A stretch of DNA of 64,000 nucleotides from Pirellulales bacterium (GCA_036267355.1 DATAWG010000099.1:90393-154392); one strand, 5' to 3'; counted from the first letter of the stretch, positions 9,001 to 61,547 are shown. Numbers and translations are program-made. The notes: a model not told the origin generated them from the letters alone.

Positions 9001-10419
9001 GGCGGCGCTGCCGACGGCAACGGCCGTATCGCCCAACGAACCGGCGGTAAGGGCCAATGCGCCGGCATTGACGGTCGTCGCGCCGGTGTAGGTGTTCGGG
9101 CCGGAGAGGGTAAGCGTGCCGGTGCCGACCTTGATTATTCCACCCGGGCCGCTGAGGATGCCGCTGTAGGCCGTGCTGGCGTTGTTGCCGCCGACGAGGG
9201 GAGCCACGGCGGCCGGACTGCCGGCCAGATCTTGAAGCAGGATATTTCCCGAGCCCGAGAGGCCGCCGAGGTTCGGGGCATCGATTCCGGCGGCAAACGT
9301 CAATCCATTGTTCTCAATGACGGCGACGGTGCTGTTTTGGACGGCATTCGTGTTGGCCAATTGGAGCGTGCCGGTGCCAACGGTCGTGGCGCCGTTGTAG
9401 GTGTTGGCGCCCGCGAGGGCCAACGTGCCGCTGCCGGCCGTGGTGATGCCATAGCCGGCGCCGCTGATGACTCCGCCGATCGTCAACGTGTTGTTGCCGA
9501 CGGTGATGGTGGGCGAAGCAGTGAGCGCCACCGGGGCAGTTCCGAGATTGAGGCCGCTCGTCGAACCGGTGAACGTAAAACTTCCGCCGATGCTATACGA
9601 CCCCGAGCCGAGCGACAGCGTCATCGGCGAATTGCTGGTGTTGTCGATCGTGGTTCCACTGCCGATCGTAAACAGTTTGCCGGAGGCGAAACCGCTGAAC
9701 GCGCTCGCCGCCGCGGCCTGGGCAAAGTTCAAGGTGCCGGACGTCAACGTGAAGCCGGTGGTGAAGCCGGTGTTGCCTTCGGTGGTGTTGTTGCCGACGT
9801 CGAGGTTGACCGTCAGGCCGGCGCCGTTTTCCGTAATGATGCCACCGCCGCTCTGCTCATTGTAGCCGAGGGCCGTTTGAAAATTGATCGTGCCGCCGCC
9901 GGCAAGCGTAAGCGCGACTTCGTTGAAGTTCAGTGCAGCGCCGTTATATGTGTCGCCTTCATTCAAGACCGAGCCCGCGGCGACCGTCCAGGTTTGCGTG
10001 CCGCTGAGGTACGAGTTGGCCGAACCGGTCAACGTGATATTGGCGCTGCCGCTGCTGATCGCCAAACCGGTCCAATTGATTGCGGAATCGAGCGCCACAG
10101 TGAATGTGTCGCCGGCAAAGTCGGTCGACGAGGCCCCGAAGGTCAACTGCGCGCCGGCGGGGGCGGCGGCGAGGCCCGAATCGCCCCCCGTGTTGGAAGT
10201 TGTCCAGTAGCTGTAACCTTGCCCGGGGCTGTAAGTGCCCGTCGGACTTCCAAAGCCCGAACTGGTGGTGGTGTTGACGTCGAAGTAGTAGGCCGTTCCA
10301 TTCGCCGCGGCCAGGCGGGGCGCCGCAAACACGGCCGCGACCATGAGCAGCGCTTGCCAACCACAGCCGGCCCAGCCACCGCAGATCGAGGAAAACCAAG
10401 AACCGGTTGAACGACTCAT
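1..10419 (-). CDS. Giant secreted autotransporter-associated beta-strand repeat (PATR) / beta-helix surface protein, 5' (N-terminal) portion; gene continues beyond window start
   Basis: Minus-strand ATG at 10419..10417 gives MSRSTGSWFSSICGGWAGCGWQALLMVAAVFAAPRLAAANG (signal peptide), followed by an uninterrupted frame of Gly/Thr/Ser/Ala/Asn-rich repeats such as GTLTLSGANTYTGATTVNAGTLQL, LTLSGPNTYTGATTVNAGALAL and ITTAGSGTLALAGANTYNGATTVGTGTLQL, all the way to position 1. I spot-checked the frame at 1..36 and at 10381..10419. No stop in this frame would explain why the six-frame track (complete ORFs only) lacks it, while every other frame yields only short Arg/His/Gln-rich shadow ORFs. Confidence 0.8.
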   Translation of the reverse strand, partial: MSRSTGSWFSSICGGWAGCGWQALLMVAAVFAAPRLAAANGTAYYFDVNTTTSSGFGSPTGTYSPGQGYSYWTTSNTGGDSGLAAAPAGAQLTFGASSTDFAGDTFTVALDSAINWTGLAISSGSANITLTGSANSYLSGTQTWTVAAGSVLNEGDTYNGAALNFNEVALTLAGGGTINFQTALGYNEQSGGGIITENGAGLTVNLDVGNNTTEGNTGFTTGFTLTSGTLNFAQAAAASAFSGFASGKLFTIGSGTTIDNTSNSPMTLSLGSGSYSIGGSFTFTGSTSGLNLGTAPVALTASPTITVGNNTLTIGGVISGAGYGITTAGSGTLALAGANTYNGATTVGTGTLQLANTNAVQNSTVAVIENNGLTFAAGIDAPNLGGLSGSGNILLQDLAGSPAAVAPLVGGNNASTAYSGILSGPGGIIKVGTGTLTLSGPNTYTGATTVNAGALALTAGSLGDTAVAVGSAANSGTLLINGNYTIGSAAGGAGSLRVGGTSGIGTLAFSNSEASPSTLTINNATTSATNLTLGGSTSGAAVLNLNFSASATDQIVTTGMLSTGPGGATINLSPLSGATLGIGSAPYTLLSFASSPAPTAIALGNFTPPTGDVAYLTASSTGVQLNVALGAAGDTYWAGGTDGNWNTNPAGTTNWVTAATGGVNSGLPISTANVFETATGAANLTQSLGQSFTINSLNFNIAGVSIGPGAVATNSITILAGASGTNTAGSGITVASGAGLNSISAPIVLGAAQSWTNASGSLFTVSGSVANGGYLLTIADTGTGGTTISGPISGSGGLTMAGSDTLTLSGANIYSGGTIVSSGTLTIASAGSITAAGGGFTVNGASTIANIDGAYINSGSSAVTVNGGATLTFSGSATASSLAGTSGEVVIGGTSAGTLNINGGTLNVDASGASGANPASVNGVRIGNGSGGNGTLNIAGGTLAVSGGDEFLVGYNAATGLVDVTSGSLSVGAGGGRVFIGGGDTNSGTYGTGTLTIAGGTLTVAAGGAFPSDLIYLAGYGGTGVLNLNGGILSTARGFGSGGSSTINFNGGTLQAALSSTTFLTGISNAYVLAGGAVIDSQANAVTISQALLHATALGATPDGGLTKVGSGSLTLSGANTYTGPTLASAGTLEFTSETSLYDNTTASWTAANITVNPGATLTFGVGASGHFTAADLQTLLTNLSVASGGFASGSSLGIDTTNAVNGAFTYAGVIANTNSGANVLGLTQTGANTLYLSGANTYTGPTLVSAGTLAAGVASVANVSGALGNNSAVTLANTAGAGLNLEGLNTQIGSLTGGGTIGGNVALGSATLTIGGNNTNPAAFAGVISGAGGLTIIGTGTTTLSGANTYAGPTVVSSGSALTAGVASVANVSGAFGDNSAVAVNGGTLSLGSSTQYATQIGSLTGTGGTVSIGAATLTVGGDNTSPAAFAGSINGTSGALTKIGSGMLTLSGASTYTGATSVNGGTLRLAATGSIATSSLAMGGGTLQLMGGESASQTFTATTFNAGASAISAGVALGSGKNLVLNGLTRSAGATVDFTLPTTGSITTTTTFTGPGVLVDATNNWTAYATVNGGANWATISGGAIAPLASYSNTNSFPATYIGETNLTQNYTATGAVESGVVTFSDPNTTLTLATTNDDLADAGGILVIPAATGTTITGGSFHAGGGNAVLLIDYGSLTVNSAITGGSLTISGPGMTTLGGTNTYSGGTYLNGFASIAAAANMGGGTLVFNGGTLQATGTFSLGNAVTLGNNGGAFDVTSSNTLTMSAAMNGAGTLTKTDSGTLILTGVSTYTGGTIVGGGTLQVNTANGQPGQLSASPTITVNNGGTLRLNATDVLGYTTGKEALVINNGGTVTAASGVRQTIANNMTLVGGTLSSAAGLGDGNGNYSMYNGAGFIATSDPTTGNPATINATEVAIEINGNLTFNVSRGAQNPPSDLNVSSALVPFNAYTAGVSKTGNGIMTLSGADTYTLGTTINAGTILVGANNTNSATGPLGLSTAVVSLGASFGANSASLLTAGSYTIASPITVVAGNTGTLTIGGTAAAASAFSGSTITLDNNLTVSQVAGGSLSITDAITSGAAGTETLTLADSGSLMVGSTIGGGTGTIAVVASGPGTTILTAADSYTGATTINPGATLQLGNGTTRGAISALTTLTNNGTLLLDPGTAAAQSVTNVIGGSGAVQQIGPGLNTLTGANTYSGGTTVSAGILGATSPTVGSTSSGIGTGALTVSAGATFNYLTGSTTPSTLAIVPTSGTSLTFAAGSTLGTQILDTIATSGTAVASTPASGSVALNVYGVAGQTVPSGVQTLLSSVGGGLNANGASTYALSVYNNTNFTVSNFTVGANAVTITTTPQPELTAEYWSGGYGAASGVWGASDGSATSNWVSNITGIATPLPPGPTATVNFSATGAANEANMSLGANMSILGLVSNDPNALTLSNDPSFNTLTIGAGGITIGNTNSAAGAVTIAAPLVLGATQNWSVNTGNTLTVNSAISGSGGLTTTGPGLVSLAGANTYTGTTSINAGTLQLAVTGTTTGSALELAGGTLQLLGGRSAAETFTGTTFNAGASSISAGVALGAGDNLVLGALTRTVGATIDFVLPTTGSITTTQTTVGPGVLVDATSSWTAYATVNHGSTWATISAGAIAALASYSNTNTFSGNDAGETNLTQNYTATAAVESGVLTFSTPSTTLTLAATGDDLVDAGGILVTSAATGSIITGGSFHAGGGNGIVLIDYGSLTVNSGITGNTLTISGPGITTLAGGATNTYTGATYINGFASIANNADLGAASTGAAINLNGGTLQATATFGLFNGTAGANNRAINLGSSGGTFDVTATNTLTVPGVISGAGGLTKTDAGTLALSGSNTYTGGTTINQGTIATFGNSTLGTGAVVLNGGTLSLPGTNNQIGVHFEGSNAVGNYTALAPNGSGAPGATMNNWMNLAGSSFSSATSLTDASVNPTGASFTLTGVGSTYNSGSSIPLLNGYLYWAAGSTLSLNLSNIPYSSYSLYVYTGAAESTAGGRDNNITLGGTTYYLASDTVPTTYTQATSTTPGTYTVGDYVVFSGLSGTSQTVGLDNINGNGAFEGFEIVGLVAETLANNVQVTANSTIDVTGYNLATITGQTTIGASTLSVTGGSTGANIPYALTLGAVTLTGNATFNVANNGSGAGTLTLGAITDNGNNYGITTSGPGAVVVLNAANTYTGDTNVASGTLNVGATGSIAGAGINVSSGATMNIAAGGSISTATNLTDNGVVNLDNSTTTLAMLNGTNGSAALDLFGTALSVTGGGSFSGTIADGGPAGSLTVNGGTLTLTGANAYSGGTTITSGTLRLGDGATSNGSVAGNILDNAALVFANFNPQSYGNVISGSGTFTESGPNVLTLTNANTYTGNTNVTGGTLAIGSGGAIVGTGVSVSSGGTLSVLPGGSISTASTLTANGTVNFNNPTRTIATLNGTNVSAALNLNSTALTVSGGGS

Positions 10420-12096: not shown

Positions 12097-12228
12097 TTCC
12101 CCCGCGTGGGGCAAGCCGCGGCCGTTCACCGAACTACGCGCCGAAATTGTCCGCAAAATAGATCAAAAGATGCGAACGCGAATTGGGCACGGAGCCCAGC
12201 GAATGTCGAAGATTTGGCCGGCTACTTA

Positions 12229-12675
12229 ATGGTTGGTTCAGGCACCGCATCAACGCTCAATGTCACCGCATCGACCGTCCCCATCGGGCTCGCCTACGGC
12301 CTCACAACTCGGAGCAACAACTCTCAATAGCAACGTCACGTTCAATGTCGCGGACAACATCAACGGCGGCGGCAATGCCCTGGGCACGTTGACACTCGGT
12401 TCCATCAGCGACAGCGGCGGCGGATACGGAATCACCACGGCCGGCCCCGGCACGGTAGTCCTTTCGGCGGCCGCCAATCCCTACGGCGGCGCAACCGCAA
12501 TCAACTCCGGCGCCTTGCGCTTGGCCATGCCACGACAAATACGCGTTCTCTCCGAACGCGACATTCGCCGGCAGCCCCGCCGCGGTGCCCGAGCCCTCGG
12601 CAATCGTGTTGGCCGTATTCGCCGCGATCGGCCTGTTGCTCACCGTGCGTCGGCGAAGCGTTTGTTGCCGGTAGT
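12229..12675 (+). pseudogene. Degenerate remnant of a PATR-repeat protein with a PEP-CTERM sorting signal, disrupted by two frameshifts
   Basis: Three successive + frames carry the pieces. Frame 1 (ATG 12229) reads MVGSGTASTLNVTASTVPIGLAYG...stop at 12328. Frame 2 reads LGATTLNSNVTFNVADNINGGGNALGTLTLGSISDSGGGYGITTAGPGTVVLSAAANPYGGATAINSGALRLA (PATR-like). Frame 0 reads ATFAGSPAAVPEPSAIVLAVFAAIGLLLTVRRRSVCCR* (canonical PEP-CTERM: PEP, hydrophobic span, Arg cluster) ending about 12675. Confidence 0.4.
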
Positions 12676-12998: not shown

Positions 12999-13763
12999 AT
13001 GAGCACACAAACCGATACGCAATTCGATTCGCTGGCACCATCGATTCGGTTGCACGACGGATCGCGCCGCACAGCGGAAGCAGTCGCTGCGCCGTATTTT
13101 TCGTTGGCGCGGCTACGGTTGGAGCGGAACGAGCCGATCGTCGAACCCGAGGGCAATCTGCGTGCGGGCTATCGAATTGCAAAGCGGGGGTTCGATATCG
13201 CCGGCGCGATTGTTGCGATTGTGCTGCTTTCGCCGGTGTTGGTCACGGTGTTCGTCGTGCTCTCGATTAGCACCTGGGGGCGGCCCTTGATTCGGCAAGA
13301 GCGGGTCGGATATTTGGGACGACGATTCGGCATGTACAAATTTCGCAGCATGCGCCTCGATGCCGAAAAGCTGCAGCATCTCGTCAAGAATGAACACAAT
13401 TCCGGGCCGATTTTCAAGAACCGCCGCGATCCGCGGATCACGCGCATCGGCCGACTTCTCCGCCGCACGAGCATCGACGAGATGCCGCAATTGTTCAACG
13501 TGCTTTTCGGACACATGTCGCTGGTCGGCCCGCGGCCGCCGTTGGCGAAGGAAGTGGCCCACTATAAGGCGTGGCAACGCCGTCGTTTGGCCATCCCGCC
13601 GGGGCTGACGTGCCTTTGGCAGGTGAGCGGGCGGTCGGAAATCGGCTTCGACGAGTGGGTGCGGATGGATATCTGGTATTTGCGAAATCAAAACCTGGCC
13701 ACCGATTTGCAGCTTCTGGTCCGCACGCCCTTGTGCGTGCTGAGCTGCCGCGGAGCGTATTGA
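12999..13763 (+). CDS. Bacterial sugar transferase (polyprenyl-phosphate glycosyl-1-phosphate transferase; EpsB/WcaJ/ExoY C-terminal-domain type; exopolysaccharide initiation)
   Basis: ATG at 12999 (MSTQTDTQ...). Family motifs KRGFDIAGAIVAIVLLSPVLV, GRRFGMYKFRSM, GPIFKNRRDPRITRIGRLLRRTSIDEMPQLFNVLFGHMSLVGPRP and LWQVSGRSEIGFDEWVRMDIWYLRNQNLATDL match PF02397. Confidence 0.85.
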   Translation: MSTQTDTQFDSLAPSIRLHDGSRRTAEAVAAPYFSLARLRLERNEPIVEPEGNLRAGYRIAKRGFDIAGAIVAIVLLSPVLVTVFVVLSISTWGRPLIRQERVGYLGRRFGMYKFRSMRLDAEKLQHLVKNEHNSGPIFKNRRDPRITRIGRLLRRTSIDEMPQLFNVLFGHMSLVGPRPPLAKEVAHYKAWQRRRLAIPPGLTCLWQVSGRSEIGFDEWVRMDIWYLRNQNLATDLQLLVRTPLCVLSCRGAY

Positions 13764-13810
13764 CTAGGGATTAGGGTGAGGGGTTAGGGTGAGGGGGTTA
13801 GGGTGAGGGC
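13764..13810. repeat. Family C G-rich telomere-like repeat (ctagggattagggtgaggggttagggtgagggggttagggtgagggc); G-quadruplex-capable
   Basis: Four or more GGG runs with short loops and TTAGGG units. Its reverse complement recurs 70 bp downstream at 13881..13918. Confidence 0.7.
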
Positions 13811-13880
13811 TGTGCGACGATGGGTTTCCCGCAACGATGCCCGGTGCGCTATAATCCAGGGGAGGCTCGTCCCGCGTCGT

Positions 13881-13918
13881 CCTATCCCCTCACCCTCGCC
13901 CTCACCCTCACCCTTTCC
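13881..13918. promoter_or_regulatory. Family C C-rich partner (cctatcccctcaccctcgccctcaccctcaccctttcc) 5 bp upstream of the ctpA ATG; a potential 5'-UTR stem with 13764..13810
   Basis: Inverted complement of the upstream G-rich element. The same C-rich box abuts the start codons at 19369, 22768, 29019 (minus) and 56658 (minus). Confidence 0.55.
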
Positions 13919-13922
13919 TCCG

Positions 13923-15293
13923 ATGCCTCGTCGAAATTATCTGATCATCCTCGCGATGGCGGTTGTGTCGTTTGCCTGCTACGGAGCGGTTGACCACAAT
14001 CGCTACGGCCGTTTTTTCGCGGAAGTCATCAACAAGGTCGACCGCGATTATGTGAAGCCGGTCGACAAGGAAAAGCTGTTCGATGCCGCAGTGAATGGAA
14101 TGCTGGCGACGCTCGACGAGAATTCCAAGTTCTACGAACCGGAAGATGCACAATCGAAGTTGCTTTCGGTGATCGATCAACAGTTCGGCGGCGTGGGCAT
14201 CGAGGTCAGCGCAGATCCGGCGACGCAGCAGATCGTCGTCCGCGGCACGATCGTCGGCTCGCCCGCTTATGCCGCCCACCTGCTGGTCGGCGATCGGATT
14301 GCAGGCATCGACGGTCAGTCCATCGCGCCGGATCCAAATCGGACAACCGGGCCATCGCTGATCGAGCAGGCGACAAAGCTGATCCGCGGCCCGATCGGCA
14401 CGACCGTGCGGCTGGAGTTGATTCGCGCCGGACAGGCCAAGCCGGTCGAAGTGACGCTCGAGCGGGCCGAAATCAGGGTCGATTCGGTGCTTGGCGACAG
14501 CCGCAATGCCGACGATTCCTGGAACTTTCACCTCGCGGGCCATCCCGAGATCGGCTACGTGCGAATCCGATCGTTCGGCGATCGCACGCCCCAGGAACTG
14601 CAAACCGCGCTCACCTCGATCGGCGCCGACAAGCTGAAGGGGCTCGTGCTCGATCTGCGCGGCGATCCGGGCGGCCGGCTCGATGCGGCCATTGATGTGT
14701 GCAGCTTTTTCATCCCGTCCGGGCAAACCGTTGTCACCACGCGCGGCCGCAATGACCGAGTGCAAGAGCGAGAGATCTCGCACGGACCGGCGATCTGCAC
14801 CGATGTGCCGATGGTGGTGTTGATCGATTCGATGAGCGCCAGCGCGAGCGAAATCGTTTCGGCATGCTTGCAAGACTACCATCGAGCGGTGATTTGCGGC
14901 CAGCGCTCGTTCGGCAAGGGAACCGTGCAGCGGATCATTCCGATGGGGGGCAACAACAGTGTGCTCAAGCTGACCACGGCCACGTATTGGCGGCCGAGCA
15001 ACAAGAACATCCATCGCCACAAGGGCGCCAAGGATTCGGACGAATGGGGTGTGCTACCGGACAAGGGTTTCGAGGTGAAAATGACCGACAAGGAACTCGA
15101 CGATTGGCTTAAAGACCGCGCTGCCCGGGATGTCGTGCATCGTTCGCAGCCGCCCGCGATCGGCGACGATCCACACGCCGAGGCAGCGGCGGCGATCGAT
15201 CCGCAATTGCAGCGGGCCGTCGATTATCTCGAGCACAAACCGGCCGAGGCCGCGCCGGCCGGAACGGCCGAGACCAAGAAAAACGCGGCATGA
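13923..15293 (+). CDS. ctpA: S41 family C-terminal processing peptidase (Ctp/Prc-like) with PDZ domain, N-terminal membrane anchor/signal
   Basis: ATG at 13923 gives MPRRNYLIILAMAVVSFACYG. FGGVGIEV tail-specific protease motif; PDZ segment GSPAYAAHLLVGDRIAGIDGQS; catalytic region GLVLDLRGDPGG...SASASEIVSACLQD...GKGTVQ. The track ORF starts upstream at 13803 inside the G-rich repeat; I chose the signal-peptide ATG. Confidence 0.85.
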   Translation: MPRRNYLIILAMAVVSFACYGAVDHNRYGRFFAEVINKVDRDYVKPVDKEKLFDAAVNGMLATLDENSKFYEPEDAQSKLLSVIDQQFGGVGIEVSADPATQQIVVRGTIVGSPAYAAHLLVGDRIAGIDGQSIAPDPNRTTGPSLIEQATKLIRGPIGTTVRLELIRAGQAKPVEVTLERAEIRVDSVLGDSRNADDSWNFHLAGHPEIGYVRIRSFGDRTPQELQTALTSIGADKLKGLVLDLRGDPGGRLDAAIDVCSFFIPSGQTVVTTRGRNDRVQEREISHGPAICTDVPMVVLIDSMSASASEIVSACLQDYHRAVICGQRSFGKGTVQRIIPMGGNNSVLKLTTATYWRPSNKNIHRHKGAKDSDEWGVLPDKGFEVKMTDKELDDWLKDRAARDVVHRSQPPAIGDDPHAEAAAAIDPQLQRAVDYLEHKPAEAAPAGTAETKKNAA

Positions 15294-17660: not shown

Positions 17661-17756
17661 GCGACAGGTGAAAAAGGGGGGTGGGCGAGGCTCTCTCCTA
17701 AAACACCGACGCGCCGCGGAAGTCGGGCGGGGCCTGCATCGTCGGTCAAACTTCAT

Positions 17757-17790
17757 CGCCAACGCTTCGGGCCAGTGTGCCGAGCGGCGA
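17757..17790. repeat. Family B half-element (ccaacgcttcgggccagtgtgccgagcgg)
   Basis: Matches one arm (CGCTTCGGGC) of the family B palindrome plus the gtgtgcc box seen in the 59.7-kb tandem array. Confidence 0.45.
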
Positions 17791-18037
17791 GTTCTCGAGA
17801 TAAAGCCGAGAATCGCCAGCCGGGATGATACGCCGCGGGCCGGACGTGGGAAGGGGCCGGCTCAATCGAAAATCGCTCGCCCACGACACATGGGTTGATA
17901 CCGCGGAATTCGCGATGACCGTTCGTGCTGGCAAAGGAAGTGCGGTTGTAGCGATTTTCTCGACTCTGACGGTTCGCCGGGCCGATAAGCCCTATGGGTC
18001 GAAAGCGGAGATTTCTCGCCAGCGCAGAACCAGCAAC

Positions 18038-18091
18038 GCAGCAGGCACACTCCGTGTCGTGGCGCGGACGGCACACGGAGTGTGCCTGCTA
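18038..18091. repeat. Family A palindromic element (REP/MITE-like): gcagcaggcacactccgtgtcgtggcgcggacggcacacggagtgtgcctgctacg
   Basis: Near-perfect inverted repeat of about 23 bp (CAGGCACACTCCGTGT / ACACGGAGTGTGCCTG) with a 10-bp loop, in the divergent spacer between the POT transporter and the Cys-rich protein gene. Confidence 0.8.
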
Positions 18092-18166
18092 CGTTGGCGC
18101 CGCCGCGATTGGTGGCCGCGTGGCAAAGAGATAGAAACCGGCTGATTTTTCAGGGGGGAGACTCGG

Positions 18167-19072
18167 ATGAGAAAGTATTATCTGGCATTGTTTGCCGCAG
18201 TGGCGCTGGTTGGTTGGATGGATGCCACCAGCCGCGCCGATTGCGGTTGCGGCGCTGGTCCGTCTTGCGGAAGCGAAGGGGGAGGCTGCGGCGATCCCTC
18301 GTGCGTCGAGCCCTATTGCTGCGACCACGTCTGCAATTCCGGCTGGATTTGCGGCGGCGGATGCTCCTCGTGCGGCTCACGCCCGTGCTGCGGGCTGTTT
18401 CCGTTGTTTCCATGCCGTAACGAGTGCGAATGGCGGCGCTACCGGCCCTGCGATTCGTGCGGCTGTGGCGATTCCTGCGGCGGTGGCGGGTCGTGTGGTT
18501 GCCATGAATCTTGCGGTTGCGCGAAATCGTCTGGCTGCGAAAAGTCTTGCGGTTGCGAATCGTGTGGATGTGAGAAACCGTGCGGCTGCGAATCATGCGG
18601 GCGGCGCGCGTCATGCGGTTGCGAATCGTGCGGCTGCCATGAGTCTTGCGGTTGCGATGATGGCGGCTGCCGCCCGTGTGGATTGTTTCCGTGCCTTTTC
18701 CCCTGGATCCGCAGCGAACGGTGCAAGGGGGGCGGCGAGCGCTATGGGGAATGTGGCCAATGCGGTTGCGGCGAACTGTACCTTGGCGATTGGCGAAGCC
18801 AGCCGCCGCGCTGCGAACCGTGCAACTGCTGCGGCGGTTGGGTGGGACCCGGCGAACCGATCCCGTCCTATCAAATGCCGCCGCGAGCCGGCTCGGGCTA
18901 CGGCTACGGCCAAATCGTGCCCGGCCCGAATGGCTCGGCGCCGACGACGCCGAACGATTCGATGCCGAACGCCGCTCCGCCGCTAGCGCCCCCGACCACT
19001 CCGCCGCCGACGACCCTGCCGCCGTCGTATCCGCCGCGCACGTCGCAACGCCCGCATTGGAGCAACTACTAG
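18167..19072 (+). CDS. Secreted cysteine-rich tandem-repeat protein (about 12 S-C-G-C-x-x repeats flanked by two CGLFPxFPC boxes) with Pro/Thr-rich C-terminal tail; function unknown (metal/redox binding?)
   Basis: Signal peptide MRKYYLALFAAVALVGWMDATSRA. Core SCGCHESCGCAKSSGCEKSCGCESCGCEKPCGCESCGRRASCGCESCGCHESCGCDD lies between PCCGLFPLFPCRNEC and RPCGLFPCLFPWIRSERC. Cys is roughly 20% of residues, and the DNA shows matching 18-bp periodicity (tgcggttgcgaatcgtgt...). Confidence 0.6.
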   Translation: MRKYYLALFAAVALVGWMDATSRADCGCGAGPSCGSEGGGCGDPSCVEPYCCDHVCNSGWICGGGCSSCGSRPCCGLFPLFPCRNECEWRRYRPCDSCGCGDSCGGGGSCGCHESCGCAKSSGCEKSCGCESCGCEKPCGCESCGRRASCGCESCGCHESCGCDDGGCRPCGLFPCLFPWIRSERCKGGGERYGECGQCGCGELYLGDWRSQPPRCEPCNCCGGWVGPGEPIPSYQMPPRAGSGYGYGQIVPGPNGSAPTTPNDSMPNAAPPLAPPTTPPPTTLPPSYPPRTSQRPHWSNY

Positions 19073-19177
19073 CAAGCGCGCGGCATGCGGTGCGTGATTT
19101 AAAAACACCGAAGTGATGGGAGCGATTGGACGGCCCCGGCTCGCGGCAGCGAGTTGGGGTCGTGGTGTTTTGTAGCG

Positions 19178-19232
19178 GCGAGGGGCGAGGGACTAGGGAC
19201 TAGGGACGAGGGGCGAGGGGCGAGCAAGGGGG
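19178..19232. repeat. Family C G-rich repeat (gcgaggggcgagggactagggactagggacgaggggcgaggggcgagcaaggggg)
   Basis: Multiple GGG/GGGG runs. The complementary C-rich box lies at 19342..19368. Confidence 0.7.
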
Positions 19233-19341
19233 AACGCCTTTGTTGGTGGCGCTTCTGGGCGAGCCAACCGCCGCACGCTAAACTGGCAATCGCAAGTAAG
19301 CCCGCCACCTGCACCAGGGCACCAGCCCCGAGCCACATTCT

Positions 19342-19368
19342 CTCGCCCCTCGCCCCTCGCCCCTTCCC
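19342..19368. promoter_or_regulatory. Family C C-rich box (ctcgcccctcgcccctcgccccttccc) ending at the base before the ATG of the TPP enzyme gene
   Basis: Directly abuts ATG 19369 and is the inverted complement of 19178..19232, about 110 bp upstream. Confidence 0.55.
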
Positions 19369-26993: not shown

Positions 26994-27057
26994 GGGCTCC
27001 CTCGCTAACGCTTCGGGCCAGTATGACCGACACCAGCCCGAAGCGTTAGCGAGGGGC
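26994..27057. repeat. Family B palindromic element: ggggctccctcgctaacgcttcgggcc-agtatgaccgacacca-gcccgaagcgttagcgagggg
   Basis: Perfect 20-bp arms CCCTCGCTAACGCTTCGGGC / GCCCGAAGCGTTAGCGAGGG with a 16-bp loop, 30 bp after the PEBP stop. Confidence 0.8.
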
Positions 27058-28302: not shown

Positions 28303-29019
28303 TCAGGCCGCGGTGAGCAATTTCCGCGGCGCACGGTCACGGCGGCCCGGCTGTTCGCACTGCTTTCGCGTTCCGGATTCCGCCCAGGCTTCCGCTTCGA
28401 CCGTGAGCCGGTTCAGCAGCCGTTCCACTTTTCCGCGATAAAGCTCGATGCCAGCGCGATCCAGATTCGGCGGAATCGCGATTGTCGGGCTGGTAACGGC
28501 TCGAATTCGGGAGCCCAGCCGTGGCACGGCGAAGCGATCCCACGAACCCGCCCGCCACGGCCGATCGTAGCCGAAGCCCATCAGCACCAGCGGCAGCCCC
28601 AGCTTCGACGCCAGAAAAATGCAACCGGGAGCGAGCGTGCGCCGCGGGCCGCGTGGGCCGTCGGGCGTAATGGCCAGATTGAGTTCGTTGCAATCGCAAA
28701 GCAATTCGCGCAGCGCCACCGCGCCCCCTTTATACGTCGAGCCGCGCACGCAATCGAAACCCATGTGGTAGGCGATGCGGGCCAAGATTTCGGCGTCGCG
28801 ATGCCGGCTCAAGAGCATTGCCAGATTGCAATTTCCGCGCAGATAGAGCGGGGCGAGAATGTATTCGTGCCAGAAGATATAAATCTTTTGGCCCTCGCAT
28901 GCCGGATTCACCGGGTCGACGGCCGGATCGTACAACGCCGCCTTGTATTCCATCGTGCCCATCCAACGCCGCACCGCGGCGGAGGCGAGAAGGCCGGCGA
29001 AGTTCGTAAATAGGGGCAT
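28303..29019 (-). CDS. Lysophospholipid acyltransferase-like protein (DUF374 / LPLAT family)
   Basis: MPLFTNFAGLLASAAVRRWMGTMEYKAALYDPAVDPVNPACEGQKIYIFWHEYILAPLYLRGNCNLAMLLSRHRDAEILARIAYHMGFDCVRGSTYKGGAVALRELL...ITPDGPRGP matches the DUF374 architecture (Kdo2-lipid A / lipid acyltransferase accessory family). Minus ATG at 29019. Confidence 0.7.
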   Translation of the reverse strand: MPLFTNFAGLLASAAVRRWMGTMEYKAALYDPAVDPVNPACEGQKIYIFWHEYILAPLYLRGNCNLAMLLSRHRDAEILARIAYHMGFDCVRGSTYKGGAVALRELLCDCNELNLAITPDGPRGPRRTLAPGCIFLASKLGLPLVLMGFGYDRPWRAGSWDRFAVPRLGSRIRAVTSPTIAIPPNLDRAGIELYRGKVERLLNRLTVEAEAWAESGTRKQCEQPGRRDRAPRKLLTAA

Positions 29020-29050
29020 GGGCGAGGGGCGACGGGCGAGGGGCGAGTGA
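29020..29050. promoter_or_regulatory. Family C element (gggcgaggggcgacgggcgaggggcgagtg on +; C-rich on the coding strand) abutting the start codon of the minus-strand LPLAT gene
   Basis: Reverse complement reads cactcgcccctcgcccgtcgcccctcgccc-ATG. The partner copy at 29124..29157 overlaps the dapF stop. Confidence 0.5.
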
Positions 29051-29120
29051 AGCGGCCGATACCGCTACGCGATTTTTTCGGGTTCGTTCAAGTCACTCAA
29101 AAAAAACTTCCACATCTGGG

Positions 29121-30095
29121 TTACTCGCCCCTCGCCCCTCGCCCCTCGCCCCTCACGTCGTTCCAATCGCCGTTAAATACTTCCACGGCGGGGCCAGTCA
29201 TGTAGACGTGTTGGTCGCTCGAGCGCCATTCGAGTTCCAAATCGCCGCCGGGCAGATGGGCCAGGATACGACGATCGGTGCGGCCCGTGAGCACTCCCGC
29301 CACACACACCGCGCAAGCCCCGGTGCCGCAGGCCAACGTGATCCCGCTGCCGCGCTCCCACGTTCGCATCGTCACTTCCTGCCGGCCATCGACCTGCACG
29401 AAATGCACGTTGATTCGCTTGGGAAAAAACACGTAGCGTTCCAACAGCGGCCCATAACACTCGAGCGTCACGCGAGCCACGTCCGGATCATAAATCACCA
29501 AGTGCGGATTACCCATCGACACACCCGTAATGTGCAGCCTTCCACCGAAGGGCTCAAAGATATCCGGTTGTGCGAGCGCAGCTGCAGCGCCAGATCCGGG
29601 AGGCAAAATTTTGGCTGCTTCTACGGCCGCCATTTTGAAAAGCTCGGCCAATGGAAAATCAACGACCTGCGCCGTCGGCGGAACGCCGGGCAGCGCCATC
29701 GGAATCTTGGCCATTTCCAAGATCGGCGCGCCCATGTCTACCCGCACGCGGTCAACCCGATCATTCTCGATCTCCAAATCGAGCGTGAGCACGCCGTTGC
29801 CGGTTTCGATTTTCAACTGCGGCTTGCGGGCAATGCCGTGGTCGTAGATATATTTCGCCACGCAGCGAATCCCATTGCCGCACATCTCCGATTCCGAGCC
29901 GTCGGCGTTGAACATCCGCATCCGGGCATCGGCCATTTCGGAGGGGCAAATCAAGATCAGCCCGTCGCCGCCGACGCCAAAATGCCGGTCCGCGATCCGC
30001 CGGGCCAAGTCGGCCGGATCGTCCGGAATCGGTTCGGCAAAGCAATCGACGTAAACATAGTCGTTGCCTGCCCCGTGCATTTTGGTAAATCGCAT
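29121..30095 (-). CDS. dapF: Diaminopimelate epimerase
   Basis: MRFTKMHGAGNDYVYVD, the catalytic Cys motifs MCGNGIRC and LACGTGACAV, and two-domain DapF length. The C-terminal 12 aa are encoded by the family C repeat. Confidence 0.9.
   Translation of the reverse strand: MRFTKMHGAGNDYVYVDCFAEPIPDDPADLARRIADRHFGVGGDGLILICPSEMADARMRMFNADGSESEMCGNGIRCVAKYIYDHGIARKPQLKIETGNGVLTLDLEIENDRVDRVRVDMGAPILEMAKIPMALPGVPPTAQVVDFPLAELFKMAAVEAAKILPPGSGAAAALAQPDIFEPFGGRLHITGVSMGNPHLVIYDPDVARVTLECYGPLLERYVFFPKRINVHFVQVDGRQEVTMRTWERGSGITLACGTGACAVCVAGVLTGRTDRRILAHLPGGDLELEWRSSDQHVYMTGPAVEVFNGDWNDVRGEGRGARGE
29124..29157. repeat. Family C C-rich repeat (ctcgcccctcgcccctcgcccctcgcccctcacg) overlapping the last codons of dapF
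   Basis: Encodes the odd C-terminal tail ...NDVRGEGRGARGE* of DapF and is the inverted complement of 29020..29050 (about 100-bp stem-loop potential). Confidence 0.65.
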
Positions 30096-32440: not shown

Positions 32441-32474
32441 GTTTCTGTATCAAACTTCACTGACCGGCACACTA

Positions 32475-32610
32475 ACCCGAAGCGTTAGCGAGGTCGCGCC
32501 CGAGGACCGGTCATGCTCGCTTAGAGCGCGAGCCAATGTGTACGCGGAATGGCCCTCATTGAGCGGTATGAAGCCGTCGTTGCGGGGCTCCCTCGCTAAC
32601 GCTTCGGGCT
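32475..32610. repeat. Family B element, open configuration (arm acccgaagcgttagcgagg ... 90-bp spacer ... ccctcgctaacgcttcgggct)
   Basis: Same 20-bp arms as 26994..27057 but in the opposite arrangement, around an approximately 90-bp spacer that contains its own palindrome (gcgcgagc / gctcgcttagagcgcgagc). It fills the recG to LysR-like gap. Confidence 0.7.
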
Positions 32611-32637
32611 AGTATTGTTTTCGCGCGGAGGCGCGGA

Positions 32638-35232: not shown

Positions 35233-35892
35233 TTATGCCAAGCCTTTGAGCAGTTCGGTTCGCTGATCGCAATTCTGTTGAATCGTGTCGAGCTTCGCTG
35301 CCAAGATCGGGATCGCCGCCTCGGGATCGCTCGGCATCGTGTTCGCGGCCGACACCGGATCTTCTGCCGGCGCGGCAGACGGCGGCGGGCTGCCGGGCAT
35401 CGGATTATCCGCCGGCGGAGCGGCAGCGGCAACGGGCGGCGCGACGGCAGCCGGCGGTTTTGCGATCGCATCGCCGCTCGGCGGCATGCCGGCCAGATGT
35501 TCGGTCATCGCGACATATTCGTCGACCGAATGCATCAGCAGCACATCGTGGTCGTACACCTGATCCAGCAGGGCCTGGTCGACTTTCACCAAGTCGAACA
35601 CGCCCGTGTAGCCTTCCCATGCTCCCCGAATGCGAGCGATCAGTTCGTCGGTTTTGGCCCGCAGCCGGTCGAACTGCGGGAGGATCGCGATCTTGCCGGC
35701 ATCGGCCAACTTTAGCGCGACCGCATCCATCGCCCGCTTGCTCCGCTGCAGACGATCGGCCAGCCAAGTGCGCTGGAGTGCGTCGCTATCGCGGCGATAT
35801 TCGCGTTCCAAATAGCCGTGGAAGCCCGGAATCGCACCGACGAGCATCATCAACGAATTGCGATGTTGGACATAGGATCGCGGCTCGGGCAT
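35233..35892 (-). CDS. Hypothetical protein (219 aa; N-terminal helical domain, Pro/Ala-rich middle), co-directional and 74 bp upstream of the SPFH gene
   Basis: [51 protein letters not shown]...[64 protein letters not shown]... No family recognised, but codon usage is typical of neighbouring genes. Confidence 0.5.
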
Positions 35893-36051
35893 AAGGATCT
35901 CGACAAGGGGAGGGATTCAAGGAATTTGGCGAACGCACGATCGACGGGGCAAAAGAGCCGAGGATAATTCGCCGGCCGAGCGTCGATCTTGCCCCGCCGC
36001 CATGATAGCACTTGTCCCAGCCGCCGGGCAAACGCCCCGCGCCGGTTGCAA

Positions 36052-36199
36052 AGTAGCAGGCACACTCCGTATGCCGTCTGCCGCGGTACGGCCCGCACTA
36101 GCCCGAAGCGTTGGCGAGGGCGCGCCGCCAACGCGGGTTCACCCTCGCTAACGCTTCGGGCTAATGTGGGCAGACGGCGCACGGAGTGTGCCTGCTACG
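36052..36199. repeat. Composite nested repeat: family A arms (agtagcaggcacactccgtatgccgtctgcc ... gcagacggcgcacggagtgtgcctgctacgt) enclosing a complete family B palindrome (36100..36163)
   Basis: Outer arms pair over about 30 bp. The inner segment is gcccgaagcgttggcgaggg-cgcgccgccaacgcgggttcac-cctcgctaacgcttcgggct. It occupies the divergent spacer between 35892 (minus gene start) and the HEAT-repeat gene. Confidence 0.8.
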
Positions 36200-36311
36200 T
36201 ATCGCGTTTTATTTCGTTGACCGGTCTTGGCTTGCCGCGGACGGTTCGCTATAGTCCCCGCCGCTCACGTCTACGCGAGTCTCCTCTCGTTCAATCTCTT
36301 CGAACCAGCCG

Positions 36312-37163
36312 ATGGCGATTTTGATGCGCGCATCCAACGAGCCCCTGCGACGATCGGGCTGGCTCCAGGCGACCGAGCGGCATCGTTTCGCTGTTTGCGC
36401 CGCCATGGCGTGTCTGTCTGCCGCGATCTTCAGCGGTTGTTGGTGGGGCGGAGCCGACGGTGTTCCGTTCTACTACAGCAAGAAAGACAAACAGCAGCAG
36501 CTTGCCGATTTGGAACACTATGGCCCATTCGCCTTCCAGCGAATCGAAACAATCAAGAAGATGGGCGAATACGCCGCCAAGTCGCCGCAGCTCGAGAAGG
36601 AAAAGGTAGCCGCCAAACTGGCTTCCAATATCCAAACGGAGCAAGATCCGCTGGTGCGAATGGTGATCATCCGCGAGCTGGGGCGCATTCCGACCGAGAT
36701 TTCATCGTCTGTGCTCACCGCGGGAATCAAGGATCCCGATCCGGAAGTGCGGATGGAGGTTTGCACGGCCTGGGGCAAACGGGTGCATCAATCGCTCGCC
36801 AAGGGTGGCGGAATTCCGCCCGGGCCGACCGAAGATTCGGCCGTGCGAGTGCTCGCCGGGGCGCTGGCGAGCGACACGAATTTCGATGTGCGCATGTTCG
36901 CCGCCCGTGCGCTCGGCGAAGTGCCGCGCGATCCGCGGGCGATCGCCGCGCTGGGAATCGCGCTGAAGGGTTCGACGGATCCGGCCATGACGTACAACGT
37001 GGTCACGTCGCTGAAATCGGTTTCCGGCAAAGATTTCGGCAGCGATGTGAAGCAATGGCAGCAATTCGCCGACAGCTTCATTCCACAAGCCATCGTGCCG
37101 CCCACCGGCCTCGGCCAGCAAGCCCCCAGTGCCATTGCCTCGCGCCCATCGCGGACGAACTAG
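36312..37163 (+). CDS. HEAT-repeat (PBS-lyase-like) protein, probable lipoprotein
   Basis: Repeated units DPLVRMVIIRELGRIP, DPDPEVRMEVCTAWGK, DTNFDVRMFAARALGEV and DPRAIAALGIALKGSTDP. A possible lipobox MACLSAAIFSGC begins at 36405, so the true start may be that internal ATG. Confidence 0.65.
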   Translation: MAILMRASNEPLRRSGWLQATERHRFAVCAAMACLSAAIFSGCWWGGADGVPFYYSKKDKQQQLADLEHYGPFAFQRIETIKKMGEYAAKSPQLEKEKVAAKLASNIQTEQDPLVRMVIIRELGRIPTEISSSVLTAGIKDPDPEVRMEVCTAWGKRVHQSLAKGGGIPPGPTEDSAVRVLAGALASDTNFDVRMFAARALGEVPRDPRAIAALGIALKGSTDPAMTYNVVTSLKSVSGKDFGSDVKQWQQFADSFIPQAIVPPTGLGQQAPSAIASRPSRTN

Positions 37164-38185: not shown

Positions 38186-38324
38186 ACCTTGCCGATCCGC
38201 CCTGCTCCAATCGCGCAAAACGGCCCAGGCAAGGCCTGCAATCCAAGACGGTAGCCAGAAGCTGCCGACGGCATGACAACCGTGGACAATTCGAACGATT
38301 TTGCGGATGTGGCCGCGCCCCGCT

Positions 38325-38660
38325 ATGTCAATCAAGCATCGACTCCGAAATCCGTTCTACGCCTTGGCGATGGTGCTCGGCCTGTTGTTTACCATTACCA
38401 CCTGTGCCGATGCGGTTTTGATGATGAAAACGAATCGGGCCGGGGCAATGCCGCGACCGGGCGAGCCGGGATACGAATTGATGACCTTGCTCGATCGGCA
38501 TGGGACGGAGATACTTGTCGGCGAATTGGCCGCCCTGGGGCTATGCACTGTCGCCGCAATCCGATTGGACCATGTGCGCGATCGGCGCAAATTCGCCCGG
38601 CGGCAGGAAGGCAACCGATCAGAGACCGGGGGCGGCGCCGCGAATGCGGACCAGGGATAG
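38325..38660 (+). CDS. Possible small two-TM membrane protein
   Basis: MSIKHRLRNPFYALAMVLGLLFTITTCADAVLMM...ILVGELAALGLCTVAAIRL gives two hydrophobic helices. No homolog recognised; weak. Confidence 0.3.
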   Translation: MSIKHRLRNPFYALAMVLGLLFTITTCADAVLMMKTNRAGAMPRPGEPGYELMTLLDRHGTEILVGELAALGLCTVAAIRLDHVRDRRKFARRQEGNRSETGGGAANADQG

Positions 38661-38795
38661 TCCCCTTTTGCGGACCGGCGACTGTCCCCATTCGCGGACC
38701 GGGGACTGTCCCCCTTAGCACCACCCCCTCAGCACCCGGGAAAGGCGCCGAGACACGAGAAGCCACTGAGGGCCAAAGACCAGGAAGCAAAGAAC

Positions 38796-39176: not shown

Positions 39177-39180
39177 GAAC

Positions 39181-39269
39181 GTAGTAGGCACACTCCGTGT
39201 GCCGCCTGCCGTGCTCTGTGCGCAACGTTCCGAGGTGCGCAGACGGCACACGGAGTGTGCCTGCTACGT
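39181..39269. repeat. Family A palindromic element (gtagtaggcacactccgtgtgccgcctgcc...42-bp spacer...gcagacggcacacggagtgtgcctgctacg)
   Basis: About 30-bp perfect arms around the spacer, between the cupin gene and ligA. The same arms occur at 18038, 36052 and 42696. Confidence 0.8.
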
Positions 39270-39294
39270 TGGCCGCGGCTGGGCCGCGATCTAA

Positions 39295-42695: not shown

Positions 42696-42840
42696 CGTAG
42701 CAGGCACACTCCGTGTGCCGTCCGCCGTGCTCCGTGCTCCGTCCGCCGTGCTTCGTCCGCCGTGCTCCGTGCTTCGTCCGCCATTTATGGCGTGGACCGC
42801 GCCGCGGAGTGCCGACGGCAAACGGCGTGTGCCTCCTACG
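42696..42840. repeat. Family A element with expanded, internally repetitive spacer (cgtagcaggcacactccgtgtgccg + [tccgccgtgctccgtgct]n + degenerate right arm ggcaaacggcgtgtgcctcctacg)
   Basis: The left arm is identical to other copies. The spacer holds 4-5 tandem about 18-bp units (ccgtgctccgtgctccgtccgccgtgcttcgtccgccgtgctccgtgcttcgtccgcc), and the right arm carries mismatches. It lies upstream of the methyltransferase gene. Confidence 0.7.
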
Positions 42841-51103: not shown

Positions 51104-51186
51104 GAAAGCTCCGGGAGCCCGCGGCGCTAGCAAGGAATTGGGCCCTCGTACGTTCCTGGCTGGCCCGGATTATTCATGGCGCCACA

Positions 51187-51245
51187 CTAGCCCGAAGCGT
51201 AAGCGAGGGAGCCACCGACGCTTACCCTCTCTAACGCTTCGGGCT
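51187..51245. repeat. Family B palindromic element (agcccgaagcgtaagcgaggg-agccaccgacgcttac-cctctctaacgcttcgggct)
   Basis: Slightly diverged arms (gtaagc vs gttagc). Flanked by its own 12-bp inverted repeat cattcatggcgcc...ggcactatgaataatccgg. Confidence 0.7.
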
Positions 51246-51335
51246 ACTATTTCGCAGCGTGTCGCGAATTCCTGGCACTATGAATAATCCGGGCTAGCGC
51301 TGCGGGCTCGAGAAGCCACTTGCTTTGCCGCTCGA

Positions 51336-59654: not shown

Positions 59655-59850
59655 GTCTGATGCGTAAGCGAGGCTAAGCTAGCCAGATGCGTTCGCGAGG
59701 CAGAGGATGCCTCAATCCTCGCTGACGCTTCGGGTTAGTGTGCCGCGTGGCACTCGGCCAATCCTCGCTGACGCTTCGGGTTAGTGTGCCGTGTGGCACT
59801 CGGCCAATCCTCGCTGACGCTTCGGGCTAGTGTGCCGCGTGGCACTCGGC
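59655..59850. repeat. Family B-derived array: degenerate palindrome arms followed by 3 tandem copies of a 47-bp unit (caatcctcgctgacgcttcgggttagtgtgccgcgtggcactcggc)
   Basis: Tandem copies occur at about 59712, 59759 and 59806 with 1-2 substitutions (gttag/gctag; gcgtgg/gtgtgg). Each unit carries the CTCGCTGACGCTTCGGG arm plus a gtgtgcc/ggcac mini-palindrome. There are no unique spacers, so it is not CRISPR. Confidence 0.75.
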
Positions 59851-59934
59851 CTCGTCTGCGAATCGCTCGTGACTTCGGTAGTCACGAACTCGACCGCGAC
59901 TGCCGTTGCTCGGCGCAACAGGATAAGAAATAGA

Positions 59935-61443: not shown

Positions 61444-61520
61444 TGCGAGCAGCCTGTTGAAGACATCTTGCCGCCGGATGGCGTCTGCCATCCTCTGTGG
61501 GCAACCCACCGCGGGGCGCA

Positions 61521-61547
61521 GAAGGCACACGGAGAGTGCCTGCTACG
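61521..61547. repeat. Family A half-element (gaaggcacacggagagtgcctgctacg)
   Basis: Matches the right arm GGCACACGGAGTGTGCCTGCTACG with one mismatch. No left arm nearby. Confidence 0.55.

Follow-up and report, generated by a model that had tools for sequence, protein, structure and literature searches.

Two REP-type repeat families nested in a divergent promoter spacer of a Pirellulales bacterium

The window analysed here is a stretch of 64,000 nucleotides from a Pirellulales bacterium (GCA_036267355.1), a bacterial chromosome segment of 62% G+C that encodes, among others, RecG, a LysR regulator, an SPFH protein and an NAD-dependent ligase. Weaker named protein hits (Thermoguttaceae, Thermostilla, Planctomycetota) point to a planctomycete, probably of the Pirellulales, as do the MAGs in which the same repeats occur. 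Gene boundaries were taken from open reading frames (ORFs) and the G+C composition of codon positions rather than from a gene finder. The element under study lies in a 419-bp spacer (between 35892 and 36312) that separates two divergent genes. The leftward gene (35233–35892, minus strand) encodes a protein of 219 amino acids with no Pfam domain, and the rightward gene (36312–37163, plus strand) encodes a HEAT-repeat protein with a lipoprotein-like N-terminus. A scan for consensus promoters gave three sites in total against 0.1 expected, two of which face outward and flank the element. The promoter-like site of the leftward gene (36002–36031, minus strand) consists of TTGCCC, 18 nt and TG-TATCAT, and its −10 box is conserved in all relatives. 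That of the HEAT-repeat gene (36227–36255, plus strand) consists of TTGGCT, 17 nt and TATAGT, with both boxes conserved in all relatives. A divergent promoter spacer is a minority location for REPs.

A repeat search of the window identified the element, at positions 36053–36198, as a 146-bp imperfect palindrome composed of two nested inverted repeats. The outer arms (36053–36082 and 36169–36198) are 30 nt each, lie 86 nt apart and show 93% complementarity. The inner arms (36091–36120 and 36142–36171), again 30 nt each, are separated by 21 nt and show 90% complementarity, and an innermost 9-bp pair is formed by 36108–36116 with 36126–36134. The outer arms belong to a repeat family termed A and carry one substitution each relative to its consensus; the inner arms belong to a second family, B, and carry one and no substitutions, respectively, relative to its core. 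Five units, namely A-left, B-left, a B remnant, B-right and A-right, are packed into 146 nt in inverted arrangement and are of more than one type, as in a BIME.

The left arm of family A (36053–36082, plus strand) begins with the tag GTAG (36053–36056), followed by CA, the hairpin GGCACAC-TCC-GTATGCC (36059–36075), which contains one stem-breaking substitution, and an inner extension GTCTGCC. The short stretch GCGGTACG (36083–36090) is the sole A-loop sequence that lies outside B and, together with 36080–36082, makes up an 11-nt bulge present only on the left. The left arm of family B (36091–36120, plus strand) consists of GCCCGCACTAG and CCCGAAGCGTTGGCGAGGG, with one substitution in the core. 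After the B loop (36121–36141) the right arm of family B (36142–36171, minus strand) has a core that equals the consensus and an outer extension CTAATGTGGGC. It adjoins the right arm of family A (36169–36198, minus strand) without a spacer. This last arm reads GGCAGAC, GGCGCAC-GGA-GTGTGCC, TG and CTAC and also contains one stem-breaking substitution. Both A arms of the composite are thus disrupted in their hairpins, and most other A arms are perfect. These substitutions fit an old A doublet, although the numbers are too small for dating. The B loop contains CGCCAACGC-GGGTT, the exact complement of the B-left variant GCGTTGGCG with which it forms the 9-bp pair. Judged by its sequence, CGCCAACGC-GGGTT looks like a third B arm, now degenerate and oriented as B-right is, and a decayed third arm at this place suggests that the B part may have had a history of its own as a small cluster.

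When the left half of the composite is aligned base by base with the right half in reverse complement, the stretch from the GTAG tag to GAGGG gives 52 matches out of 57. The halves differ by five substitutions and by the one left-only bulge of 11 nt (approximately 36080–36090). The junction between A and B is alike on both sides, GTCTGC|CCRCAYTAG, apart from this single 11-nt indel. As single-stranded DNA the region 36045–36206 folds at −71.9 kcal/mol, compared with −37.1 ± 3.4 kcal/mol for shuffled sequences (z −10.3), and as RNA at −123.2 kcal/mol (z −12.4); the fold is one long interrupted stem. The original prediction had placed a complete family B palindrome in the loop of a family A palindrome at 36052–36199, with the arms in the order A-left, B-left, B-right, A-right, and had proposed base-level realignment and folding as checks. 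All of this is borne out: both parts are complete family members in the order claimed, the outer arms pair, the inner arms match the family B consensus, and the double hairpin or long stem lies far above the shuffles in stability.

There is no target-site duplication at the composite, the flanks of which (TTGCAAA|GTAG...CTAC|GTATCGC) are inverted rather than direct. The flanks of other copies (AAC|GTAG...CTAC|GTT) are likewise inverted and not direct, so that the duplication typical of MITEs is not seen there either. Several other readings of the sequence were considered and discarded. The composite is not an intrinsic terminator, as it has no T-run and no terminator-like site, and it is not CRISPR-like, as it has no unique spacers. 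Nor is it protein-coding: two ORFs that run through it (35850–36182 and 35989–36324) are without the third-position G+C (GC3) pattern of coding sequence. Across the whole window no Rfam family was matched at gathering score; the sub-threshold matches (miRNA precursors, VA RNA and Mcr7, including a miRNA-precursor-like match at 36091–36172) are generic hairpin look-alikes.

Family A is a REP with a GTAG tag, and its arms form REPIN-like doublets when paired in inverted orientation. The consensus of the arm is (A/C)(A/G)GTAG(C/T)A-GGCACAC-TCC-GTGTGCC-GTCYGC, in which an unpaired GTAG and two bases precede a 7-bp stem with a 3-nt loop. A consensus arm alone is palindromic and folds at −8.4 kcal/mol (DNA). 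The 19-nt core is matched nine times in the window against 0.04 expected. A-like core matches that adjoin a GTAG-like tag were pooled from the window and from public contigs (Pirellulales, Pirellulaceae, Planctomycetaceae and Schlesneria MAGs, several IMG/VR contigs and the syntenic relative L041), giving 62 in all, some of them degenerate or chance matches. The tag is GTAG in 58 of the 62, the exceptions including one GCAG (18038) and one CTAG (L005), and the core is identical to the consensus in 44. A compensatory stem variant, GGCACGC/GCGTGCC, in which two substitutions keep the pairing, occurs four times. The arms are arranged singly, in tandem runs and as head-to-head doublets in which the GTAG tags lie outermost and the spacers, of 12–54 nt, are unrelated (L001, L017, L022, L024, L026, L030 and L041). 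Identical arms are found in contigs assigned to several planctomycete orders.

In the window all A arms are dispersed between ORFs with coding-like GC3. Besides the composite there are head-to-head doublets at 18034–18096, with a 15-nt loop, and at 39178–39270, with a 29-nt loop, the latter between a cupin gene and ligA; the core search also gave a single arm at 61518–61546 (minus strand). A further doublet at 42697–42840 has an expanded loop that contains 3.5 tandem copies (42709–42782) of the unit CTCCGTGCGCCGTCCGCCGTG, which is 21 nt long and comes from the inner half of the A arm. A loop built from arm-derived tandem units indicates that slippage, in addition to insertion, makes A loops grow. 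Outside the window, a Pirellulales MAG contig (L001) carries three copies of an element of about 170 nt within 8 kb (1500–1685, 3710–3895 and 6137–6320). Each has A arms on the outside and a conserved interior of 118 nt with an inner stem of its own, and the mean column identity is 93%. The same contig has three tandem A arms at 1410–1530. The neighbours of the element there are caspase-domain, FGE-sulfatase and TPR proteins, and no transposase is nearby.

Family B has the arm consensus GGCACAC-TAG-CCCGAAGCGTTAGCGAGGG and a unit length of 20–29 nt; its core is matched 12 times in the window against 0.04 expected. A B arm alone folds at only −2.2 kcal/mol on either strand, and a stem is formed by the doublet alone. 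The tetranucleotide beside the core varies (CTAG, CTAA, TTAG, CCAG, CTGG, CCAA, ACAA and ATAA, with GTAG once). As it neither folds on itself nor has a GTAG tag, B is not a canonical REP and is not filed in the GTAG family. Its arrangements are those of a REP-type repeat, but it departs from the GTAG family in these two defining features. The window contains a tail-to-tail doublet at 26999–27055 (17-nt spacer), a head-to-head doublet at 32471–32613 (83-nt loop), which is downstream of recG, and a second head-to-head doublet at 51179–51255 (15-nt loop). Three tandem 46-nt units at 59713–59851 (minus strand, 96% identity) each consist of a B arm, TTAG or CTAG, T and a hairpin GTGCC-GCGT-GGCAC, and such a unit looks like a tagged REP fused to a B unit. 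All B copies in the window lie outside ORFs with coding-like GC3. Elsewhere the family is found, in the form of doublets and of 28-nt tandem units, in other planctomycete contigs and in IMG/VR contigs. In most B arms (for example 32471–32480, 51183–51192 and 59735–59745) the outer extension is GGCACAC followed by TAG, and the 5′ half-stem of the A hairpin is made of this very 7-mer, GGCACAC. The common sequence may be a shared recognition motif, or it may be due to chance.

The composite had been described as the only site at which both families occur. It is the sole nested site in the window; a second divergent spacer (17763–18166), however, also holds both families, as a degenerate single B arm (17753–17772, minus strand) lies there about 260 nt from the A doublet at 18034–18096, not nested with it.

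Other features of the window are separate from these two families. A third structured repeat is present in three intergenic regions (13762–13932, 19174–19364 and 29012–29154), where four to seven copies of the G-rich heptamers GGGGCGA / GGCGAGG face an inverted CTCGCCC run 75–140 nt away; a G-quadruplex could form from the G-rich arm. Tandem repeats are found at 18480–18657 (33 nt, 5.3 copies, inside the ORF 18167–19072) and at 38645–38713 (24 nt, 2.9 copies, at the end of the ORF 38301–38660). The first part of the window (1–10000) has a strongly positive GC skew (+0.08 to +0.15) and a negative AT skew, and it contains only short ORFs with a third-position G+C of 0.8–0.89, unlike the remaining window.

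Orthologous regions were fetched via homologues of the 219-amino-acid protein. The gene order, HEAT-repeat gene, 219-amino-acid homologue and SPFH gene, is kept in all fetched relatives, and both −10 boxes, ATGATAGCA and GCTATAGTCCC, are conserved. In three lineages (L013, L040 and L042/L043) the site is empty and the boxes are 79–80 nt apart, compared with 246 nt in the window. Two other lineages contain a third palindromic family at this site, with distances of 243 nt (L012) and 307 nt (L041). The arms of this third family, GTGTGGCACTGGCAAGCGAAGTCTGCCAGTG, each form a hairpin CACTGGCA...TGCCAGTG; they lie at approximately 9700–9860 in L012 and 9570–9800 in L041, and none is found in the window. 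In each of the three occupied lineages, a T-rich ancestral spacer is still recognizable on the right-hand side of the insertion. The site is therefore polymorphic for presence and absence, as is described for MITEs, although the relatives share only 68–79% amino acid identity in the flanking gene, so that this is not polymorphism at strain level. The empty relatives, together with the conserved boxes, show that the composite was added to an ancestral arrangement of back-to-back promoters, and comparison of the occupied sites shows that the spacer of about 18 nt between the −35 boxes has been taken by palindromic repeats more than once. Lying upstream of both predicted start sites, the composite is probably not part of an mRNA at this locus, and any action from this position would be that of DNA rather than of an mRNA element.

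Two REP-type repeat families make up the composite as a BIME-like cluster, which belongs with ordinary REP/BIME-type elements rather than representing a new kind of element. The explanation that we consider best, and to which we give about an even chance, is that a B doublet was inserted into the loop of a pre-existing A doublet. We infer that a short-loop A doublet was in place first; a complete B doublet (36091–36168) would then have integrated at the 3′ edge of the A loop of about 8–11 nt to give the 146-bp imperfect palindrome. The whole block is an insertion in the spacer of about 18 nt between the back-to-back divergent promoters and, as DNA, would be selfish or neutral and able to form a cruciform or hairpin. 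By analogy with known GTAG REPs, family A may be mobilized by an HUH/Y1 (RAYT-type) transposase acting on single-stranded hairpins. Deleting 36091–36168 in silico leaves GTAG..GTCTGCC-GCGGTACG-GGCAGAC..CTAC, an A doublet with a loop of 8–11 nt that resembles free A doublets (in L024, in L041 at 12203–12268 and in the window at 18034–18096). The inner part of the composite measures 81 nt, compared with 77 nt for the free B doublet at 51179–51255. Insertion is favoured because removal of B leaves an A doublet of the free type and because the inner part has the size of free B doublets. There is one nesting in 64 kb, and by a rough estimate a B locus would fall inside an A doublet by chance in about 1–2% of cases per locus, or about 5–10% per window; as the feature was selected after the fact, this figure is not compelling.

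The symmetric junction of A and B is explained by palindromization as well as by precise insertion at the loop edge. In such a process a neighbouring pair of one A and one B arm would have given rise to an inverted copy, through template switching or hairpin-primed synthesis for instance, or, as a variant, two A arms would have been added symmetrically around an existing B doublet. The same junction is found on both sides save for the 11-nt indel, as this process would predict, and arrangements that could have served as its starting point do exist. These half-composites consist of a lone B arm and, 14–33 nt further on, a lone A arm of the same relative orientation, and occur in L003, L005, L014 and L015. 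The recurrent adjacency could mean that B and A form a unit rather than independent elements. The spacers of the four half-composites are, however, unrelated in both sequence and length, which argues against a conserved A–B unit. A scan of genome contigs for the B-to-A junction pattern gave 10 matches, none of them a full nesting, where a rough calculation predicts about eight by chance; five of the 10 (Deltaproteobacteria, Streptomyces, Paraprevotella, Burkholderiaceae and Acidimicrobiia) match the pattern alone and are chance. By a rough estimate, about one such adjacency would arise by chance in each repeat-rich genome, and the search for half-composites asked for exactly one B/A orientation. 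In the metagenome scan two half-composites were the only finds. In addition, both parts of the composite are of the size of free-standing doublets. We regard palindromization as unlikely, although it explains the junction equally well.

These results bear on what the original prediction had proposed for the origin of the nesting. Its alternatives, insertion into the loop or a modular composite element, are the right ones, with insertion favoured, but palindromization also fits the symmetric junction. The proposed alignment to other A copies leaves, once B is removed, a canonical short-loop A doublet, but the junction revealed in this way fits palindromization equally. The statement that the site gives a direct handle on the mobility and ordering of the two families is too strong, as the junction is symmetric and no second nesting was found in collections from which the source genome is absent. 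The prediction also missed that the repeats are of the REP/REPIN/BIME type, a known class with published examples of mixed-family and nested arrangements (PMC3733652).

The modular alternative treats the nested arrangement as a multi-copy, MITE-like unit in which the A arms are terminal repeats and B is internal cargo, all moving together. The three copies of the A-armed element of about 170 nt in L001, at 93% identity, make this conceivable, since they show that A-armed elements with cargo can multiply as units. No second A[B]A junction is present in the window, and exact-match scans of 185,579 species-representative genomes, JGI metagenomes and IMG/VR, none of which holds the source genome, gave no full nesting. 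The IMG/VR scans for the nested pattern gave nothing real, their single match (L039) being due to chance. The stem-breaking substitutions in both A arms are also unlike a recently amplified unit, and we regard a modular unit as improbable.

The location of the composite, exactly between two conserved back-to-back promoter-like sites, its very stable fold and the large palindromes at the same place in two other lineages raise the question of whether it is a functional structured element. It might insulate the divergent promoters from each other or couple them, for example as a cruciform or a site for protein binding, or it might be a structured RNA. The comparison with the relatives does not favour this: three related lineages are empty, with their promoter boxes conserved regardless, and the occupants of the other two come from a different family. 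Moreover, A and B repeats are found in convergent and unidirectional as well as divergent spacers, no Rfam family is matched, and the position upstream of both predicted start sites means that the composite is probably untranscribed. A functional role of this kind is very unlikely.

Inverted REPs or TIRs flank REPtrons, which are frequently lost by deletion (PMC3733652), so that nested arms could in principle be left behind when a RAYT gene flanked by inverted A and B repeats is lost. Only 21 nt separate the B arms here, however, and these resemble a decayed B arm rather than coding sequence, while in relatives the site is a promoter spacer without a gene; a REPtron remnant thus has little to commend it and is highly improbable. 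An independent metagenome contig of 901 bp encodes an identical copy of the 219-amino-acid protein and ends inside A-left at the same position, which confirms the left junction and at the same time shows that assembly breaks at the repeat. Chance juxtaposition or an assembly artefact such as a fold-back chimera is scarcely credible: amplification or assembly errors can make long palindromes and the metagenome contig breaks within A-left, but the arms differ by five substitutions and the 11-nt indel, unlike a fold-back, the left junction is reproduced in that independent assembly, and all four arms come from families with many independent copies.

We also compared the composite with known systems. 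A GTAG REP is defined as an imperfect palindrome of 20–40 bp, with a stem of 6–13 bp, a short loop and an unpaired GTAG (or GYAG/GTRG) at one end, and the same REPs usually flank its cognate RAYT gene. Family A is similar to GTAG REPs and REPINs in its terminal GTAG, two unpaired bases, 7-bp stem, 3-nt loop and conserved 3′ extension, in its single arms, tandem clusters and head-to-head doublets of variable spacing, in its extragenic location and in its compensatory stem variant. The coexistence of several families in one genome is a further likeness. GTAG REPs form head-to-head, tail-to-tail and head-to-tail dimers with spacers of 20–100 bp (Di Nocera et al., 2013; PMC3733652), and head-to-head doublets are the REPINs of Bertels and Rainey (2011), as cited in PMC3733652. 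Family A is unlike the published GTAG REPs in that its sequence corresponds to no published consensus and in that identical arms extend across several planctomycete orders, and family B is unlike them in having neither tag nor self-complementarity. A search of a literature library gave no paper with the exact A and B repeat sequences. As far as the supplement peptides of PMC3733652 permit a judgement, the GTAG-20/21 families of R. baltica do not correspond to A or B.

RAYT-type Y1/HUH enzymes recognize a hairpin and a 5′ tetranucleotide on single-stranded DNA (PMC3733652; PMC6006769). In contrast to GTAG REP systems, no cognate RAYT was found in the window or the fetched loci. A six-frame regular-expression search for the HUH...Y motif of RAYT/Y1 enzymes gave no transposase in the window and 43 fetched loci, the sole match (in L013) being a MotA/ExbB protein, and no Y1_Tnp domain was found among 18 proteins scanned against Pfam, including the ORFs of L001. 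A Y1 class enriched in Planctomycetes is flanked by atypical structures that have the foot CnGA (PMC6006769), which is different from the GTAG foot of family A.

The BIMEs of enterobacteria are similar to the composite in that inverted units of more than one type lie in one intergenic region and can form a single large hairpin. In the BIMEs of E. coli, REP subtypes alternate side by side with conserved linkers, mostly at the 3′ ends of transcription units. In contrast, one doublet here lies wholly within the other; the composite joins unrelated families, and divergent promoters lie on either side of it. Published examples include hybrid dimers of mixed families, REP dimers that sit inside other palindromes and GTAG units next to unrelated stem-loops (PMC3733652). 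Nested or adjoined cases include GTAG-15 of A. variabilis, CGTC-1 of H. neapolitanus and GTAG-23 of T. roseum, and GTAG-1 units of P. putida and P. fluorescens adjoin unrelated stem-loops (PMC3733652). These cases, including those with double-palindromic TIRs, share with the composite a GTAG or CGTC REP that is nested in, or adjoins, an unrelated inverted repeat. They differ in that the REP dimer is the inner partner, or in that tens to hundreds of copies exist, whereas here the GTAG REP is on the outside and one copy is known.

The loop or centre of a REP palindrome is also an integration site for other mobile elements, as proposed for the composite. IS1397 and ISKpn1 insert in BIME loops. 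The targeting of REP/BIME palindromes by insertion sequences is attributed to Tobes and Pareja (2006) in PMC3733652. Such insertion sequences are autonomous, with a transposase gene and target duplications, whereas the guest here is 81 nt long, non-coding and without a target duplication. Finally, MITEs and nested MITEs resemble the composite in being short and non-coding, with terminal inverted repeats, multiple copies and empty sites in relatives. They differ in that the A and B copies have no target-site duplication and that single and tandem arms are found as well, a REP-like feature.

Two previously undescribed short-repeat families are thus added to the REP/REPIN catalogue, A as a canonical GTAG REP and B as a second REP-type repeat. 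Particular to the composite are a GTAG REP on the outside, a guest made of a non-palindromic repeat and a location in a divergent promoter spacer. It cleanly exemplifies the insertion of a REP-type cluster between promoters that stand back to back, in a spacer that is filled elsewhere by a different palindrome. For annotation, the repeats explain the assembly breaks at this locus and call for caution against spurious ORFs that run through A and B copies. The understanding of REP-type elements as such is unchanged, and the finding would gain greater value only if B truly prefers A loops. That the A loop is a preferred integration site for B, or that A and B arms are a bipartite substrate of one Y1 transposase, appears doubtful at best. 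If either were true, it would explain the recurrent B/A adjacency and the shared GGCACAC, and the site would offer a natural picture of how a REP-mobilizing enzyme targets hairpin loops, in a phylum unstudied for such systems.
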